41,876 nucleotides of DNA from the NCBI GenBank assembly GCA_938023415.1, contig CALHEE010000007.1, positions 1 to 41,876 on the forward strand. The letters run 5' to 3'. Every line of letters starts with the position of its first letter. Positions within the stretch are counted from its first letter, which is position 1. A program made the position numbers and the translations under genes. Below are positions 23,504-30,295 of the stretch, piece by piece. The stretch comes from Minisyncoccota bacterium. GTDB taxonomy: Bacteria > Patescibacteriota > Minisyncoccia > Minisyncoccales > GBS-2. Below the pieces are notes generated by a model. It was not told the DNA's origin. It did not search any database and saw only the letters and a list, made by a program, of their open reading frames with translations.

Positions 23504-23728
23504 TTATTTGAAAAACCGAGAAAGAAAATAAAAAATTGCGGAAAAAATAATGCTTAAAATAAGACAAGTTGTTAAAGGAAAATAAAAAGTAAAAGTTTCT
23601 TTTTTAATAAAAATGTCACCTGGGAGCTTTCCCAAATAAGGGATTTTAGCACTAAAAACCAAAAGAAGGCCTAAAACAATCAAGCAAAATCCCAAAAAAA
23701 TTAAAATTTTTCCGAAGAGAGAAAGCAT
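23504..23728 (-). CDS. DUF2905 family small membrane protein
   Basis: LGKLPGDI..FYFPLTTCLILS between two TM segments. Confidence 0.88.
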   Translation of the reverse strand: MLSLFGKILIFLGFCLIVLGLLLVFSAKIPYLGKLPGDIFIKKETFTFYFPLTTCLILSIIFSAIFYFLSRFFK

Positions 23729-24864
23729 TTGTTTTTGTTATACTCGACTACAAAAGGACACTCAGGATCAGGAAAAAAGGCATTGCCCATTATCTCTTTA
23801 GCTACCGCATGACACCCTCCTCGACAATTTAACAAAAAAGGACATTCTTTACAAGGAGAGGGAGGATTTTTAATCCACTCTCGAAAAAAATTAAATTGAG
23901 AAGAGTTTTCCCAAAAAAATCTTATTTTCTCAGCCTTACCCGCAGGTTCACCCCAGAAACTACAACTTTTCACATTTCCCAAGTGATCGATGGCAGCAAA
24001 ATAATTTCCTCCTACACAACCATCATACCCAAAAAAATTTAAAATCTCTTTTTTCGCTCCACTCCAATAAGCCATTGGTAAAAAAGAACAATCAATCATA
24101 GGATGAATTTTATATTTTTTAGCCAATTTCCTTAAAAGAGAGAAAAAATTAATATACTCTTGGTGAGAAAGCTTAAGCTGAGAATATAAACTCTTTCCCC
24201 TTCCCATTGGTTTGAATCTTAAAAAAAGAACATCTTTTATGCCCATTTTTTTCGCATATTTACAAATTTCCTCTAAATGGGAGTAGCTTTTTTTATTCAC
24301 GATAAAGTTTATTCCCACTCTTATTTTTTCTTTTTTTAAAAGTTGAAGAGCTTTATGCCAACTTCTTTCTTCAAAGGGTAACTTTTCATTAAAAAGATCA
24401 ACCGAAACATGAATGACGCTAAAAACTTTACATTTTTTCACATTTTCTCTGGTAATAAACATTCCGTTAGTGGTGACAGTGGGAGAAATTCCTTTTTCTC
24501 TAGCATAAGCAGCGATGGCAAAAATATCTGGACGGGAAAAAGGTTCTCCCCCACCAAAGGCAACAGAAAAAACTTTCATTTCTGATAAAATATCGATTAT
24601 TTTTTTGATTTCTTTGAAGCTCAATCTTCTGTTTCCCTCTGGTTTAGAGTCTGAGTAACAAAAAGGACATTGCTTGGGACATTGATTGGTGAAATTAAGA
24701 TGAATAAAAAGAGGGGTAGAAAGATAGTTTTTTTCTTGATTCCAAAGCTCGCTTTCTTTCTCTCCCAAAAATTTCATATAATCTTTATCAACAAAAACTG
24801 TCATTCCCAATTTTTCAGAAAATAAAATTCCGCCAAAAGATTCAGGCCTAATTTTCCAGTCCAT
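23701..24864 (-). CDS. Radical SAM/SPASM protein, PqqE/MftC-like
   Basis: CPKQCPFC, GGGEP, TTNG; SPASM C-x12-G-x4-C..CKEC-x5-CRGGC..PDPEC; N-terminal IRPESFGG. Confidence 0.92.
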   Translation of the reverse strand: MDWKIRPESFGGILFSEKLGMTVFVDKDYMKFLGEKESELWNQEKNYLSTPLFIHLNFTNQCPKQCPFCYSDSKPEGNRRLSFKEIKKIIDILSEMKVFSVAFGGGEPFSRPDIFAIAAYAREKGISPTVTTNGMFITRENVKKCKVFSVIHVSVDLFNEKLPFEERSWHKALQLLKKEKIRVGINFIVNKKSYSHLEEICKYAKKMGIKDVLFLRFKPMGRGKSLYSQLKLSHQEYINFFSLLRKLAKKYKIHPMIDCSFLPMAYWSGAKKEILNFFGYDGCVGGNYFAAIDHLGNVKSCSFWGEPAGKAEKIRFFWENSSQFNFFREWIKNPPSPCKECPFLLNCRGGCHAVAKEIMGNAFFPDPECPFVVEYNKNKCFLSSEKF

Positions 24865-24942
24865 AAGAGTAATGATGAATTTAATTAGGATAAACTATTT
24901 TCAAGAATTAATGGATTGGTCTTCAGAAAAATTTTACTCAAA

Positions 24943-25536
24943 TTATCCCCAAAATACCCCAATTAACATCTGATAAATTGTCCAAAGTATGAGCACTCCT
25001 CCCCCTCCTATTAGCATCACAAAAGGAGGTAAAAAGAAATAACGAAAGCGAGGATGACGAACAAAAAAAGAAAAATGACTAATTAAAGAGGTCAAATAAA
25101 AAGTAATAAAAACCCAAAATAATGCTGGCAGGAGACAGCCAAATAAAAAACTACATATTAAAAAAAATATAAAAGCAATGATTTCATTTTCAAAAACATG
25201 AGAAAATGAATATTTGAAAACATCTGTAGTAACAAACCATAAAAAAAATATTCCTACCAATACACTCATTACCAACCTAATAAAATATCTTTTTAAATTT
25301 TTCTTTATCTTCTTTTTTAGCTCCTCTCTTTCTTCTTGAGAAATTATCCTTTCTCCTTTGGTAGCAATCCAAAATCCTTGAAAGAGCGAAAGGGGAATAA
25401 AAATACCTACTATACCTAAAACAGAAAGAATATTAAAAACAAAAAGATAATTAACCGCACCGCTACAATTTGGATTTTTTCCAAAAATAATTTTTAATAT
25501 TTTTCCCTTTTTTGTTTGGATATTACCATTGAACAT
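24943..25536 (-). CDS. Membrane protein (about 4 TM) with KGKILKIIFGKNPNCS leader; candidate radical SAM substrate
   Basis: Leader 12/16 identical to neighbouring gene; remainder hydrophobic. Confidence 0.7.
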   Translation of the reverse strand: MFNGNIQTKKGKILKIIFGKNPNCSGAVNYLFVFNILSVLGIVGIFIPLSLFQGFWIATKGERIISQEEREELKKKIKKNLKRYFIRLVMSVLVGIFFLWFVTTDVFKYSFSHVFENEIIAFIFFLICSFLFGCLLPALFWVFITFYLTSLISHFSFFVRHPRFRYFFLPPFVMLIGGGGVLILWTIYQMLIGVFWG

Positions 25537-25562
25537 ATTCTTAAGCGAAATAATGATAAAAA

Positions 25563-25838
25563 CTAAAAGACCACAAAAGCCAAAAATAAAATTAAGGGTG
25601 CAAAAAAGAAAATGAATATAACCAAACCCAAGACTAAAAAAATATAAAATTTAGATTTGGTTTTTCTTTCTATATATTTCCACACTTTCCAGGTGATTAA
25701 ACTAAGAATTACTGTGAAAATTGAACCTAAAACCAAAAACATCCCTCCGCCCAAAAGAACATCATAAAAAGAAAGTGAGCTATTGTTTGGATTTTTACTA
25801 AAATAAATTTTAAAGATTTTTCCCTTAAAAATTTTCAT
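25563..25838 (-). CDS. Small 2-TM protein with KGKIFKIYFSKNPNNS leader; candidate radical SAM substrate
   Basis: Shared leader; upstream TTGGAA-N17-TAAAAT. Confidence 0.7.
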   Translation of the reverse strand: MKIFKGKIFKIYFSKNPNNSSLSFYDVLLGGGMFLVLGSIFTVILSLITWKVWKYIERKTKSKFYIFLVLGLVIFIFFFAPLILFLAFVVF

Positions 25839-25880
25839 TTTATTTATTTTAAGACAAATTCACTGATTTTCCAAAAATCT

Positions 25881-26915
25881 TTAAGGTTCATTAGAAAATT
25901 TTAACTCTTCTATTATTTCTGGCTGGAAAAATTGGTTAATTTTAACTTTGATAGGCTTTACTTTTTCAATTTTACCACCCTTGACCAAAACCTCCAATAT
26001 CAATCCTTCAGTAGTGTTTTTTGAAAAATTTTGATCAAAAACAAAATTGCCGAGAGAATAAGCAATGTAGCCTTCTTTGTATTTTTCAATGGGCTGAATG
26101 ACATGAGGATGATGGCCTACTACTAAATCTGCTCCGCTCTCAATTGCTACTCTTGAAATTCGAATTTGAAATTCGGTTGGCTTTAAAAGATACTCTGTGC
26201 CATAATGAAAAGAGACAATAACAATTTCTGCTTTTTCTTTGGCCTCTTTAATTTTCTCTTTCATTTTTTCTTCTTCTAACCAACAAATTCCTGATTTCTC
26301 CATCGTTGCCTGCCAAAAAGGGCTTCCTAAATTAGTAAAAGCTAAAAAGGCAATTTTTGTCCCTTTTATTTTTTTTATTAGAGGTTCACAAGCTTCCTTT
26401 TGATTGAAACCTCCTCCTAAAGGATAAATTTTTGCTTCTTTTAATCTTTTGAAAGTATCTTCCATTGCCTCTCTGCCGTAATCGAAAATGTGGTTGTTGG
26501 CTACTGACAAAAGATCAAAGCCGGCAAATTTTAACCCTTCTATTACTTCAGGTTCTGCGCGAAAAGAATAAATAGAACCTACCTTTTTACCTTTATTAGA
26601 AATTGGTCCTTCTAAATTTCCAATTAAAATATCAGCTTCTTGAAGCTCTTTTGCCACTTTTAAAAAGGGAAATTTCCAGTCTCCATTTCCATATTTTTTC
26701 ACTTTTTCTTTCACTCCCCGATCAAGCATAATATCGCCAACAAAAACTAAAGTAATGGAAGGGTTTCTTTTTAAAAATGAAGGAGGTGGTGAGTAAAAAG
26801 AGAGCTTCAAAATTTCATTTTCAAACAGTTTAATTTGAAAAATCAAAAAACTGGCCAGAAAAATTGCTATTAAAATGAAGAGAAAGAGAAAAATAAAAGA
26901 TGAGTTCTTTCTCAT
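25881..26915 (-). CDS. CapA/PGA_cap family metallophosphoesterase-fold protein
   Basis: GDIMLDR, GNLE, ANNH..DYG, SFHYG.EY, GHHPHV, YSLGNF. Confidence 0.92.
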   Translation of the reverse strand: MRKNSSFIFLFLFILIAIFLASFLIFQIKLFENEILKLSFYSPPPSFLKRNPSITLVFVGDIMLDRGVKEKVKKYGNGDWKFPFLKVAKELQEADILIGNLEGPISNKGKKVGSIYSFRAEPEVIEGLKFAGFDLLSVANNHIFDYGREAMEDTFKRLKEAKIYPLGGGFNQKEACEPLIKKIKGTKIAFLAFTNLGSPFWQATMEKSGICWLEEEKMKEKIKEAKEKAEIVIVSFHYGTEYLLKPTEFQIRISRVAIESGADLVVGHHPHVIQPIEKYKEGYIAYSLGNFVFDQNFSKNTTEGLILEVLVKGGKIEKVKPIKVKINQFFQPEIIEELKFSNEP

Positions 26916-27847
26916 TCTCGATATAATCTTTTAAGGCCAAATTGTTTTGCCAAATTAATAGTCTCTTGATATTCTTTTTTTGTAATTTTCCTCGAAAGCT
27001 CTGGAAATTGAAAGGCCTTGTAGGCAGGCCAATATTGATCCATAATGTTTAAAAAGGTATTTTTCGAAATTTCTTTTGCTAAAAATTCAAAGATTTTCTC
27101 AGAACCTGCTAAACCATTTGGTAAAATCAAATGGCGAACTATTACTCCTCTGATTGCTACTCCTTCTGGAATTTCCAAATCATCAATTTTCAATCTGCAA
27201 TCTGCAATCTTTAAATCTCCGACTTGTCGATGCATTTCTTTAATTGCTTTTTTCATGATCTCAAAATAGTTAGGGGCAAGAGAGTATTTGCGTGCAATTT
27301 TCTCATCTGAGTACTTGAGATCTGGCAGATAAATATCAACAATTCCATCTAGCAATTTTAGAATTTCTACTGAATCATAGGAATTGGTGTTGTAAACTAA
27401 GGGAATTTTTAATCCCATTTCAATGGCCATGGAAAGTGATTTTAAAATTTGGGGAACTTGGGGAGTGGGAGTGACTAAATTTATATTATGACACCCTAAA
27501 TTTTGCAATTTAATCATCATTTTCGCCAATTCTTCAAAAGAAATTTCTCTGCCCATCCTCAGTTGAGAAATCTCATAATTTTGACAATAAACACAAGCTA
27601 AATTACAACTAGTAAAAAAAATGGTACCTGATCCATTCTTCCCAACCAAAGGAGCCTCCTCTCCAAAGTGGGGATGGAAGGCAGAAACCATTGGTAAATA
27701 TCCCAGTTGACAAAATCCTTTTTCTCTTTTCATTCTGTTCACATGACATTTTCTGGGACAAATTTCACAATTTTCTAAAATTTTAAAAAGCCTTTCTATT
27801 CTATTTTTCAGTTCTTTTTTCGAAAAATTCAAATAAGAAGGATACAT
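26912..27847 (-). CDS. PflX-like radical SAM protein
   Basis: CEICPRKC.VNR, HFGEE, GSGTIFF, CNLACVYCQN, NINLVTP, RHLILP. Confidence 0.9.
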   Translation of the reverse strand: MYPSYLNFSKKELKNRIERLFKILENCEICPRKCHVNRMKREKGFCQLGYLPMVSAFHPHFGEEAPLVGKNGSGTIFFTSCNLACVYCQNYEISQLRMGREISFEELAKMMIKLQNLGCHNINLVTPTPQVPQILKSLSMAIEMGLKIPLVYNTNSYDSVEILKLLDGIVDIYLPDLKYSDEKIARKYSLAPNYFEIMKKAIKEMHRQVGDLKIADCRLKIDDLEIPEGVAIRGVIVRHLILPNGLAGSEKIFEFLAKEISKNTFLNIMDQYWPAYKAFQFPELSRKITKKEYQETINLAKQFGLKRLYRE

Positions 27848-27907: not shown

Positions 27908-28087
27908 TTACTTTGAAAAACCTTCTGCCCTTCTTTTTGCCCAGCATTCTTTGCAATATATCGGTCTACCAGGCGTAGGTTCAAAAGGCAACTCAGTTAT
28001 TTCTTTTCCGCAATCTGTACAGGTCCAATGTCCTTGGTGCATTTGTCGTCGAAAATTCCTGTTTCCTCCAAATTTCTTGAGGGCCAT
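27908..28087 (-). CDS. CxxC-x17-CxxC zinc-ribbon protein (59 aa)
   Basis: Below ORF-track cutoff: MALKKFGGNRNFRRQMHQGHWTCTDCGKEITELPFEPTPGRPIYCKECWAKRRAEGFSK. Confidence 0.9.
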   Translation of the reverse strand: MALKKFGGNRNFRRQMHQGHWTCTDCGKEITELPFEPTPGRPIYCKECWAKRRAEGFSK

Positions 28088-28207
28088 TTATTTGATAAAG
28101 TTACAAATTTGTAACTCCCAAAATTAAAAGCGACCTTTGACCTCGGTCGCTATTTAATTGGGCTTCAAAAAGAAACTTACTTAAATAGACTTCCCTCGGT
28201 CCTTTTC

Positions 28208-28236
28208 ACTTTAACAAAAATCAATTCCTATGTCAA
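28208..28236 (-). promoter_or_regulatory. Sigma70-type promoter for the zinc-ribbon gene
   Basis: TTGACA-N17-TAAAGT. Confidence 0.6.
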
Positions 28237-28260
28237 ATGAAAAGATCTTCTTTTTTGCTT

Positions 28261-29241
28261 TTAATCGTACCTCAAATTTGACCATTTACCACACCTGTCT
28301 CCCCAGCGAGCGACTATTTTTCCTTCAATTTTAGCTTGAATTACCTCGCACTTATTTGGACAGCCTGAGCACTGGAAAGAGTCACATTCGATTTCTTTAT
28401 CTGAGATTTCAAATCCTCTGAATTTTGTATTTTGGGGAGCCATTTCTTTTACTAAAAGAGCCACGCCAAAAGCTCCCATTACCGTATTGTATTTGGGAAC
28501 AATAATTTCTTGACCTAATGCCTCTCTAAAAGCCCATCTCATCCCGACATTCTCTGAAACTCCTCCCAAAAAAACAATAGGTGGTAAAATTTTTTTTCCT
28601 TTTCCCACTCCAGCTAAATAATTTCTAGCCAATCCTTGACAGAGTCCAGCGATAATATCTTCTATCTTGTGGCCGATTTGCTGTTTGTGAATCATATCTG
28701 ATTCGGCAAAAACACTACATCTACTTGCGATCTGAGTTGGGTTTTTAGACTTCAGGGCCATTTCTCCAAATTTTTCAATAGGAATTCCCAATCTAAAAGC
28801 TTGAGCATCCAAAAAAGCTCCTGTGCCTGCACTACAGAGATAATTTAATGCAAAATCAACTACAACCCCGTTTTCCAAAATGATAATTTTTGAGTCCTGA
28901 CCACCAATCTCAATTACTGTTTTGGCCTCAGGTACAAAATGGGTTACTCCTTTTGCATGAGCGGTAATTTCGTTTTTAATTACATCTGCCCCGACAATGC
29001 TTCCTATCAAATACCTTCCAGAGCCTGTAGTCCCCACTCCGCAAATTTCAATTTGAGGATTATGACTTTCAATCCAATCTTTTACTTTTTTCAGTCCATT
29101 TTTTATTGCCTCAACTGGTCTTCCTCCTGTTCTTTCATATTTCCAATATAAAACTTCTGCTTTTTCATCAATCAAAACAAATTTTATCGTCAAAGATCCA
29201 ATATCAATTCCTAAATATGTCTTAAGACTTTTTTGATTCAT
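28261..29241 (-). CDS. ATP-dependent acyl-CoA dehydratase activator (BadF/BadG/BcrA/BcrD)
   Basis: LGIDIGS, GTTGSGR, NEITAH, EIGGQDSK, CSAGTG, RCSVFAESD, C-terminal CSGCPNKC..RC; start approximate. Confidence 0.92.
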   Translation of the reverse strand: MNQKSLKTYLGIDIGSLTIKFVLIDEKAEVLYWKYERTGGRPVEAIKNGLKKVKDWIESHNPQIEICGVGTTGSGRYLIGSIVGADVIKNEITAHAKGVTHFVPEAKTVIEIGGQDSKIIILENGVVVDFALNYLCSAGTGAFLDAQAFRLGIPIEKFGEMALKSKNPTQIASRCSVFAESDMIHKQQIGHKIEDIIAGLCQGLARNYLAGVGKGKKILPPIVFLGGVSENVGMRWAFREALGQEIIVPKYNTVMGAFGVALLVKEMAPQNTKFRGFEISDKEIECDSFQCSGCPNKCEVIQAKIEGKIVARWGDRCGKWSNLRYD

Positions 29242-30295
29242 GGTAGTTTTTGACAACATCGACAAAAGCTTCTAATCTTGTGTCGATTCCGGCTTCAGCT
29301 ACTTCTTCGTCAAAAGAAAGGGATAGAAAAGGAATACCAGTTTCCTGATGGATTTTTTCTAAAATTGGCCTGACGGTAGTTTCAGGCATACAAAATGCAG
29401 GTAAAAGCTGAATTACTCCATCGAATCCTTTTTTCACATATTTTAACATCTCATAAATTGCATCTCTTCCGTGCCCCCCCACTGTCGATCCTAAATATTT
29501 TTTAATTTTTCTTTGGATTCTCCAATCAACAAACAAAAACTTTTTACTCAAGTGATAAGAAAGGGTAATTTCCTTGTGCACCTCAATTCCTTCTCTTCCC
29601 AATTTTTTCTCAATCTCAAAATTTACCCCAGGATCACAAACAGTATAAATTTCTCCTACAATCCCCACCTTTGGTAAATTTGATATTTTTTGGATCTCAA
29701 TCTTCGAAAATTCTTCTAAGATCTCTTTTTGTACTTTTTTAAAATCTTTTTCCTTTTTTACTTTTTCTAATTTCTTTATTGCCTCAGAAAAAACTAAATC
29801 AGTCTTTCCCTTTTTTATTTCTCTGGGCCTCAAAAAGGCTGCTTTTTTTTCTATTTTTTCGATGAAAAAAAGCATTTCTAAACAAAGTTTGGCTGCTCTT
29901 AAAATCTGCCATATTGACTTTTGAGAAAATTTTTTCACTTTCAAAAAAATATCTCTTACCCCTTGATCTAAGATAATAAAGTTAACTTTCTCGCCCGATT
30001 CTTTTAAAATTTTATCTTGAGTAACCGCGTAATATCTCAACCTACAAGATCCCCCAGTGGCAGTAACCATAAAAATAGTATTGGCTCCATTTCTAATTGC
30101 GGACAAGTAATTTCCCAAATTAACCTTAAAAGGAAAACAAAACATTTCTGGGGAAATTTTTGCCCCTTCTAAAATTGCCTGAGGATTGGTCTTTTCAGGC
30201 AAAACCACTCTTATTCCCAAAGATTCAAAAAGAACTTTAAAGGCGATGGTATAGTTTCCCCAATTGGCAAATGTGACAATAGGCTCTCTTTCCAT
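29222..30295 (-). CDS. 2-hydroxyacyl-CoA dehydratase-like Fe-S subunit
   Basis: PEMFCFPFK, GGSCRL, VGEIY, GGHG, FCMPE, EAGIDTRLEAF. Confidence 0.8.
   Translation of the reverse strand: MEREPIVTFANWGNYTIAFKVLFESLGIRVVLPEKTNPQAILEGAKISPEMFCFPFKVNLGNYLSAIRNGANTIFMVTATGGSCRLRYYAVTQDKILKESGEKVNFIILDQGVRDIFLKVKKFSQKSIWQILRAAKLCLEMLFFIEKIEKKAAFLRPREIKKGKTDLVFSEAIKKLEKVKKEKDFKKVQKEILEEFSKIEIQKISNLPKVGIVGEIYTVCDPGVNFEIEKKLGREGIEVHKEITLSYHLSKKFLFVDWRIQRKIKKYLGSTVGGHGRDAIYEMLKYVKKGFDGVIQLLPAFCMPETTVRPILEKIHQETGIPFLSLSFDEEVAEAGIDTRLEAFVDVVKNYHESKKS

Follow-up and report, generated by a model that had tools for sequence, protein, structure and literature searches.

What does a radical S-adenosylmethionine (SAM) enzyme do beside two membrane-protein genes that have nothing in common except a short stretch at their N-termini? 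This question is raised by a 41,876-nucleotide contig of a Minisyncoccota bacterium (CALHEE010000007.1, assembly GCA_938023415.1), which we analyzed over its whole length, hereafter the window; it is contig C7 of a 619-kb source genome of 96.7% completeness. The three genes are an intact radical SAM/SPASM enzyme of 387 residues (23701..24864, minus strand) and two proteins with the shared N-terminal stretch, or tag, which we call A (197 residues, 24943..25536, minus strand) and B (91 residues, 25563..25838, minus strand). Our analysis indicates that they are probably a minimal, divergent copy of a widespread and so far unannotated two-part system, consisting of a cytoplasmic radical SAM/SPASM maturase and one or more tagged membrane proteins. 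That enzyme and tag belong together we state with high confidence; that the tag is the substrate which the enzyme modifies appears likely.

The minus-strand gene order in the window is PGA_cap, B, A, radical SAM, DUF2905, with gaps of 26 bp (B to A) and 78 bp (A to enzyme), and with the DUF2905 open reading frame (ORF) overlapping the 3' end of the radical SAM gene. The tags lie at residues 10-25 of A (KGKILKIIFGKNPNCS, 25462..25509, minus strand) and residues 5-20 of B (KGKIFKIYFSKNPNNS, 25779..25826, minus strand). The original prediction, made from the letters of this DNA, had described two AT-rich membrane-protein genes whose only likeness is this 16-residue stretch, identical at 12 of 16 positions, and each part of that description held. 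A sequence count returned the same coordinates and identities (common stretch KGKI(L/F)KI..F.KNPN.S), and BLASTP of A against B aligned the tag stretch (70.6% over 17 residues) and left the remaining segments at E >= 0.3. Kyte-Doolittle profiles gave about 4 hydrophobic segments for A and 2 for B, of which the first begins 6-8 residues past the motif, and the GC content was 0.269 in 25001-26000, compared with 0.31-0.34 in the adjoining bins.

An alignment-based scan of metagenome contigs yielded 347 stretches encoding relatives of the enzyme, and the best 80 of these 347 were used as a locus set. These loci were searched for the motif with a plain pattern first and then with a 19-residue hidden Markov model (HMM) built from 41 seeds, both window motifs among them. 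The HMM returned 72 ORF matches at E <= 0.01, every one on the strand of the enzyme, and the next match had E = 1.7. A motif ORF on the enzyme strand was present in 64 of the 80 loci, 61 by HMM and three with a variant tag. It ended no more than 150 bp upstream of the enzyme in 45 of the 61 HMM-positive loci, lay 0.9-4.4 kb upstream in 15, with a TPR gene or others between, and lay just downstream in L020. The three variant-tag loci (L013, L014, and L016) have ...LKIRLGHEANCSS... (GHEANCSS) on frames of 150-205 residues directly downstream of the enzyme, which may represent a second, independent transfer of the tag onto larger proteins; the L016 frame has several hydrophobic stretches. Among the 16 loci without a motif, seven have less than 500 nt of upstream DNA, three have a TPR gene at the contig edge, so that a peptide gene would fall outside the contig, and L011, L012, and L031 have a broken enzyme. 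As in systems that make ribosomally synthesized peptides with post-translational modifications (RiPPs), the enzyme has an adjacent, gene-encoded, precursor-like partner that is co-inherited with it.

Whole genomes gave the same picture. Two samples of 401 genomes each, one drawn from the phylum (genomes of about 0.5-1.0 Mb) and one from the order, both including the source genome (G000), were searched at E <= 1e-50 for the enzyme and E <= 1e-3 for the motif. In the phylum sample, G000 was the only genome with the enzyme and the only one with the motif, while in the order sample the enzyme was found in G000, G761, and G523 and the motif in G000, G761, and G471. The G761 enzyme is full length, matching query positions 3-382, and the single motif ORF of that genome encodes a canonical 68-residue peptide that overlaps the enzyme start codon by 32 nt; this cassette sits between V-type ATPase genes and groES/groEL, without the accessory genes of other loci. 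The G471 match (E 6.7e-4) is a 39-residue frame antisense inside a 418-residue gene and was rejected as chance. G523 has two paralogues without the N-terminal domain and no motif even at E <= 1; these tandem radical SAM/SPASM genes (contig C69, 23054-25290, L094 and L096; E about 1e-51), which lack the N-terminal sheet described below, may belong to a different system. A real motif ORF and a full-length enzyme coincide in G000 and G761, and neither occurs alone in either sample. Motif proteins found independently of the enzyme would have spoken against a link between the two, and in these samples only enzyme-bearing genomes had a real motif. Because the sampled genomes are kin, we regard this pattern as concordance and not as a statistic.

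Elsewhere the typical partner is not a polytopic protein but a single-pass peptide of about 70 residues, which starts M-KGRILKIKTGYNPNSSSIG and continues with a single hydrophobic helix before a short charged tail; the polytopic proteins of the window are a derived form, and the tags of the window's clade sit on polytopic, fast-evolving proteins. The tag consensus consists of a basic strand, G-(K/R)-I-L-(K/R)-(V/I)-K, followed by G-(Y)-N-P-N-(S/C/N)-S-S and then the first transmembrane helix. Across 77 unique 19-mers, N12, N14, and S16 are invariant, G2, I4, L5, G10, Y11, P13, S15, and S17 are kept in about 90% or more, and position 15 is S in 71, C in 4, and N in 2. The codons at conserved residues vary (S17 is encoded by AGY and TCN, L5 by six codons), which shows that selection acts on the protein. 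A hydrophobic segment follows within 15 residues of NPN in 67 of 69 motif occurrences, with exactly one segment in 62. Of the motif F-x-K-N-P-N-x-S proposed originally, the NPN core was therefore retained in a conserved N-P-N-(S/C/N)-S-S that follows a basic strand, while F-x-K proved peculiar to the window's clade. Variant tags (NPNSSS, NANSSS, NANSGS, EANCSS, and K/R-NPN-C/N-S) track enzyme clades in a FastTree phylogeny of 123 enzymes; since the tree has no support values and kin share labels, this agreement shows co-inheritance only.

The peptide family is large, with at least 809 clusters (90% identity) at E <= 0.01 in a profile search. None of the 120 peptide clusters listed has a Pfam domain, their names, where given, are "hypothetical" apart from two evident misnomers, and no Pfam or NCBIfam model fits the family. 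The clusters returned by the ESM Atlas were all named "hypothetical protein" and scored 0.82, below its lead threshold. A search for motif proteins of 161-2000 residues found none, which is weak evidence. The match of B to NF038378 (DNZ54_00345) at 16.8 bits was rejected as noise: that cut-off is passed only in E. coli, and scores of 15-17 bits also occur in genomes without the system. A full-text literature search returned nothing on this motif or on the pairing of enzyme and tag. In the main text of a compendium of about 15,000 radical SAM proteins (PMC10288494), the terms membrane, transmembrane, NPN, Planctomycet, and Patescibacteria are absent; the compendium itself could still list the family.

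The enzyme of the window has every feature expected of its class. Pfam identified Radical_SAM (PF04055, 72.9 bits, gathering cut-off 29.5) and Fer4_12, and the radical SAM cluster motif CX3CX2C is formed by C62, C66, and C69 (24658..24681, minus strand), with GGGE at 104-107. The SPASM domain is recognized by a seven-Cys pattern, CX9-15GX4C ... CX2CX5CX3C ... C, and the window enzyme has it in full, as had been predicted: C283-x12-G296-x4-C301, C338-x2-C341-x5-C347-x3-C351, and C369, which with C259 make eight invariant Cys in the SPASM region (23758..24090, minus strand). All of these residues, the radical SAM motif, and GGGE are invariant across 27 homologues. The Pfam SPASM model (PF13186) gave no match to the window enzyme at E <= 0.01 and is recorded for some homologues. 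Metagenome homologues reach down to 63% identity, and the source labels some of those at 45-47% as Heimdallarchaeaceae. Within the phylogeny, the window enzyme groups with P0001-P0010, beside a clade with Heimdallarchaeial sequences and nested inside the family. A scan of genome contigs with the single enzyme sequence returned just two distant paralogues (27% identity); among 61 relatives, the other matches are paralogues of 28-31% identity that start at query residue 41-47.

The enzyme begins with an N-terminal domain of about 45 residues (24730..24864, minus strand), which is predicted to be the tag-binding sheet. In the AlphaFold 2 (AF2) model of the enzyme (predicted local distance difference test, pLDDT, 91.8; predicted template modeling score 0.90), this unit precedes the barrel and comprises strands at 4-8, 11-16, and 21-26 and short helices at 27-32 and 39-42; the same three-strand, two-helix unit reappeared when residues 1-50 were folded alone. 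R6, E8, F10, G11, and G12 within it are invariant in the 27 homologues. The best structural match of the whole model is SuiB (Z 30.1, root-mean-square deviation (rmsd) 3.4 over 358 residues, aligned from model residue 1; Foldseek E 1.2e-15), followed by PqqE, SkfB (Z 25.4), anSME (Z 23.7), and CteB (Z 23.5). The isolated N-terminal domain also found the N-terminal domain of SuiB first (aligned to SuiB residues 6-102), weakly, by Foldseek (34% identity and rmsd 1.5 across 32 columns, E 0.26) and by VIA (Z 3.3). A profile of this domain gave nothing significant among PDB sequences, and no Pfam or NCBIfam model of the RiPP recognition element (RRE) matched the enzyme N-terminus. An RRE is a PqqD-like winged helix with a three-stranded sheet and three helices, in which the leader binds as a strand beside strand 3.

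We co-folded the enzyme with three 4Fe-4S clusters, SAM, and residues 1-45 of B. The complex scored 0.84 (also 0.80 and 0.89), while the best of three controls scored 0.02; 58 of 80 solved complexes attain this mark, as do 2 of 110 mismatched pairs, counts that are rough here because own alignments were used and small molecules were included. At least 56% of contacts are common to the runs, and the partner pLDDT is at least 47. The lowest-error contacts join tag residues 7-13 (KIFKIYF) to enzyme residues 20-26, which form strand 3, and 276-279, and tag residues 4-30 are all in confident contact, among others with enzyme residues 99-105 at the GGGE strand that binds SAM; NPNxSS is placed at the barrel. 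The models thus support binding of the tag along strand 3, in the geometry of a leader on an RRE. Together with the 64 of 80 loci, the genome samples, and the membrane segment that follows nearly every motif, this supports the original proposal of a radical SAM/SPASM enzyme with leader-like, membrane-anchored partners.

These models suggest how the system might operate. The tag would stay on the cytoplasmic side, as its positive charge implies, and its strand would add to strand 3 of the 45-residue N-terminal sheet like a leader on an RRE. The NPNxSS segment would then span the open face of the SAM barrel, where a 5'-deoxyadenosyl radical could abstract a hydrogen from it, and the outcome might be a cross-link, an oxidation, or an epimerization within N-x-S-S. 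A thioether is not expected as the general chemistry, because 71 of 77 tags have Ser and not Cys after NPN; the alternation of S, C, and N leaves oxidation, epimerization, and cross-linking through an Asn or Ser carbon as candidates. The product would remain in the membrane, since we found no leader protease or exporter. Such genes, whose absence beside the enzyme the original prediction had noted, are absent from the window and from the recurrent neighbor families with a Pfam match across the 80 loci; three further neighbor clusters (c5, c6, and c14) gave no match.

The recurrent neighbors in the 80 loci are TPR proteins (53), metallophosphoesterases (32), HupE_UreJ_2 (22), DUF2950 (18), AhpC/TSA-like proteins (10), and TonB receptors (7), none of which occurs in the window or with the G761 cassette. 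Seven loci (L051, L052, L059, L075, L078, L086, and L088) encode two tag peptides that differ in their transmembrane helices. One is ahead of genes for AhpC/TSA (thioredoxin-like) and a 760-residue metallophosphoesterase and the other ahead of TPR and enzyme genes, which suggests a separate envelope partner for each peptide. A bolder and more tentative proposal, which is possible but which we would not favor over its negation, is that the system represents a new radical SAM modification class acting on the cytoplasmic N-termini of membrane micro-proteins at an invariant N-P-N-S-S-S. Its product would never be released and would serve, alongside TPR, HupE/UreJ-like, and metallophosphoesterase proteins of the envelope, as a membrane-tethered modified cap or cofactor; in ultra-small genomes of the candidate phyla radiation (CPR), the 20-residue tag would have moved onto polytopic membrane proteins, making the enzyme there a tag-directed protein maturase.

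Alternatively, the tagged proteins could be membrane tethers or regulatory subunits that bring the radical SAM enzyme to the membrane, where its substrate could be a lipid, a precursor of some cofactor, or a further envelope protein. Co-occurrence and co-folding show association and not modification, the partners are membrane-anchored with no protease or exporter alongside, the recurrent neighbors include envelope proteins (TPR, HupE_UreJ_2, DUF2950, metallophosphoesterase, and TonB receptor), and the membrane-lipid radical SAM enzyme GDGT-MAS is among the structural matches (Z 18.5). We nonetheless consider this explanation unlikely, because the invariant N-P-N-S-S-S comes directly after the binding strand and is set by the co-fold at the barrel face and not pointing away from it, and because the five best structures (SuiB, PqqE, SkfB, anSME, and CteB) all act on peptides or proteins, judging by their entry titles and by what we recall of them. 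Moreover, the cassette in the two CPR genomes has no other conserved neighbor that could be the substrate.

A different objection concerns the window itself, whose tags are divergent (K for Y, C or N for S) and could be remnants that are no longer recognized or modified here. When the 19-residue HMM was run on the 13,042 six-frame segments of the genome, A (7.7e-10) and B (2.4e-8) stood apart from the next segment (0.23). An HMM built from 36 seeds, without the window and L050, still placed A at the top of the genome, barely, at E = 0.001, and ranked B 1139th. What ties B to the family is accordingly its resemblance to A, the place where it lies, and its counterpart in L050, whose first gene is 40% identical to B over 82 residues. 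A search with A in 1.84 billion representatives found only A itself, so that a graft of the tag onto an older family could not be shown.

The system also breaks down in close relatives. The L011 and L012 enzyme frames begin at what corresponds to residue 63, without the N-terminal domain and with one of the three cluster Cys left; the B-like protein of these loci has KIQRIISSKKSS where L050 has KIQKIIFSRNPNNSS, and the A-like one carries no tag. L031 has a fragmented enzyme with an internal deletion, and a degenerate tag. Two runs of one study (X2 and X3) contain a strain about 95% identical to the window with a 657-bp deletion (25205-25861, contigs joining 25204 to 25862) that takes B and the first 111 codons of A, and with 1-nt indels at 24079, 24282, 24288, 24566, and 24711, all in the enzyme gene; run X1 agrees with the window form. 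As these data are contigs at depth 5-8 and not reads, the variant is treated as a hint of a third case in which tag and enzyme decayed together.

In the window, by comparison, the full-length enzyme has lost no invariant Cys or motif of its family, both tags retain N-P-N, the subsequent S, and the K-I-x-K-I strand, and it was B itself that gave the co-fold score of 0.84 against 0.02. L050, the closest locus (enzyme 65% identical), keeps the K/R-N-P-N-(C/N)-S form on three proteins. Decay of the window copy is therefore improbable. A frameshift at consecutive lysine codons divides the L050 enzyme (1770-2524), and a near-identical intact protein, P0001, is recorded with 11 member sequences; the frameshift may reflect either faulty assembly or recent breakage.

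Could the tag instead be the precursor of a small diffusible product, excised from the membrane protein like a redox cofactor of the mycofactocin or pyrroloquinoline quinone (PQQ) type? MftC ranks first among NCBIfam models, ahead of NirJ/AhbD-type models, GeoRSP, and PqqE, and PqqE is the top sequence match among solved structures (E 1.9e-24). The enzyme N-terminus also bears an RPExFGG strand that resembles the start of MftB, the basis of the likeness to MftB proposed originally. That likeness survives as a 15-residue, sub-threshold motif but not as family membership: MftB is the sole NCBIfam match to the first 53 residues, at 13.1 bits against a cut-off of 33 and over residues 4-18 only, and a genome-wide search with the model (TIGR03967) found nothing better than the enzyme's own N-terminus at 11.1 bits, hence no MftB gene. 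None of the NCBIfam models reaches its cut-off on the enzyme: MftC (TIGR03962) scores 123 bits against a curated 265, PqqE (TIGR02109) 79.1 against 381, and StsB, PapB, and AlbA far below theirs. The chaperone-like element, separate in PqqE/PqqD and MftC/MftB, is here fused and truncated. No peptidase is present in the window or among the recurrent neighbors scanned. Mycofactocin and PQQ precursors are marked by a C-terminal Tyr or a Glu-Tyr pair, and the tag has neither of these conserved; the partner as a whole lacks what we take to be MftA-like or PqqA-like features. A diffusible product is thus very improbable. In its mode of action the enzyme would resemble RiPP maturases such as SuiB, PqqE, or MftC, but it stands outside every curated family. 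Chance adjacency, with the shared 16-mer left by a local duplication unlinked to the enzyme, could account for two adjoining paralogous N-termini in the window alone and is scarcely credible given that 64 of 80 loci have the motif next to a member of the enzyme family, on the same strand in every case, and that a second genome of the order has it beside the enzyme as its sole genomic copy.

Several observations nevertheless weigh against the tag being the modified substrate of a maturase system. Most directly, the present data fit the tag as a substrate or as a non-substrate binding partner alike. The co-fold may have reached its mark through likeness to solved leader-enzyme complexes such as 5v1t and 9gm3, the partner fold is uncertain in one run (pLDDT under 50), and the isolated N-terminal domain resembles SuiB weakly, as its E and Z values show. 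B escapes a motif HMM built without its own clade. The residue after NPN may be S, C, or N, and so no single side chain there is essential. Three loci (L033, L044, and L058) have usable flanks and show no motif ORF in the DNA searched, and the test of whether the peptide occurs independently covered Patescibacteria genomes only. Finally, the sister strain has lost the system, which must then be dispensable in this population.

Modification of the tag is still the likelier interpretation. The system was also compared with characterized enzymes. SuiB/StrB is a radical SAM/SPASM enzyme with an N-terminal RRE that makes the Lys-Trp cross-link of streptide. Apart from being the best structural match, it resembles our enzyme in its three Fe-S cluster sites and in having a peptide partner whose gene is adjacent. 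The two differ in that identity is about 20%, and a full RRE has about 100 residues whereas the N-terminal domain here has about 45, with three strands and two short helices. The partner here is also membrane-anchored, with its conserved site at the extreme N-terminus, and it comes with no Trp/Lys motif, exporter, or protease.

The match to anSME is full length as well, and the eight Cys of our enzyme would suit two fully ligated auxiliary clusters, as we assume for anSME. The window partners are proteins of 91 and 197 residues and not short peptides, as for anSME and QhpD, SPASM enzymes whose substrates are whole proteins, the latter set beside our enzyme by description only. The Ser/Cys alternation at one tag position presumably parallels the Ser-type and Cys-type sulfatase sites, and the tag does not fit what we take to be the sulfatase signature, C/S-x-P/A-x-R. 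Unlike the enzyme here, anSME has no N-terminal sheet, and its alignment begins at model residue 50. The sactipeptide and ranthipeptide maturases CteB and SkfB are strong structural matches, and tag A reads N-P-N-C, which fits the NxxC pattern that we assume for the beta-thioether enzyme NxxcB; the predominance of Ser over Cys in the tags separates the system from the group of CteB, SkfB, PapB, and NxxcB. What sets the system apart from all of these is a membrane-anchored partner with an N-terminal site, a fused and truncated recognition sheet, and no release machinery.

Several genes lie further upstream on the same strand. Directly upstream of B is a gene for a membrane-anchored PGA_cap (CapA-like) protein (25881-26915, minus strand), which has a sub-threshold match to the NCBIfam model of MslH, a lasso-peptide C-terminal Trp epimerase (68 bits, cut-off 700). 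This gene is not conserved beside the system in L050, L011, or G761, and its product has no pairwise similarity to the metallophosphoesterases of canonical loci; it was dropped as a candidate part of the system. Upstream of it lies a gene for a second radical SAM protein of 311 residues (26912-27847, minus strand), whose best match is an NrdG2-type activase model at 42.7 bits, below its cut-off. Within 27908-30295 (minus strand), a 59-residue treble-clef zinc-finger protein is encoded ahead of a strong terminator-like hairpin (27892-27870), and upstream of the zinc-finger gene a BcrAD_BadFG ATPase adjoins a DUF2229/HGD-D protein in what looks like an activase/dehydratase-like pair. A promoter and terminator scan of the window gave consensus matches only, and no operon boundary was drawn from it.

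New peptide chemistry comes in large part from radical SAM/SPASM enzymes, and to our knowledge nearly all known cases yield soluble, exported products. The family described here is large, with its hundreds of peptide clusters and the 347 enzyme stretches from one metagenome scan, and has no curated model. The loci with decayed genes (L011, L012, L031, and the sister strain) provide natural knock-outs for comparison, and two CPR genomes of 0.6-1.0 Mb hold the bare two- or three-gene cassette, a minimal version of the system. If the tag is modified, it would constitute a new modification site, possibly with a new reaction, and a rare radical SAM-installed mark on integral membrane proteins.

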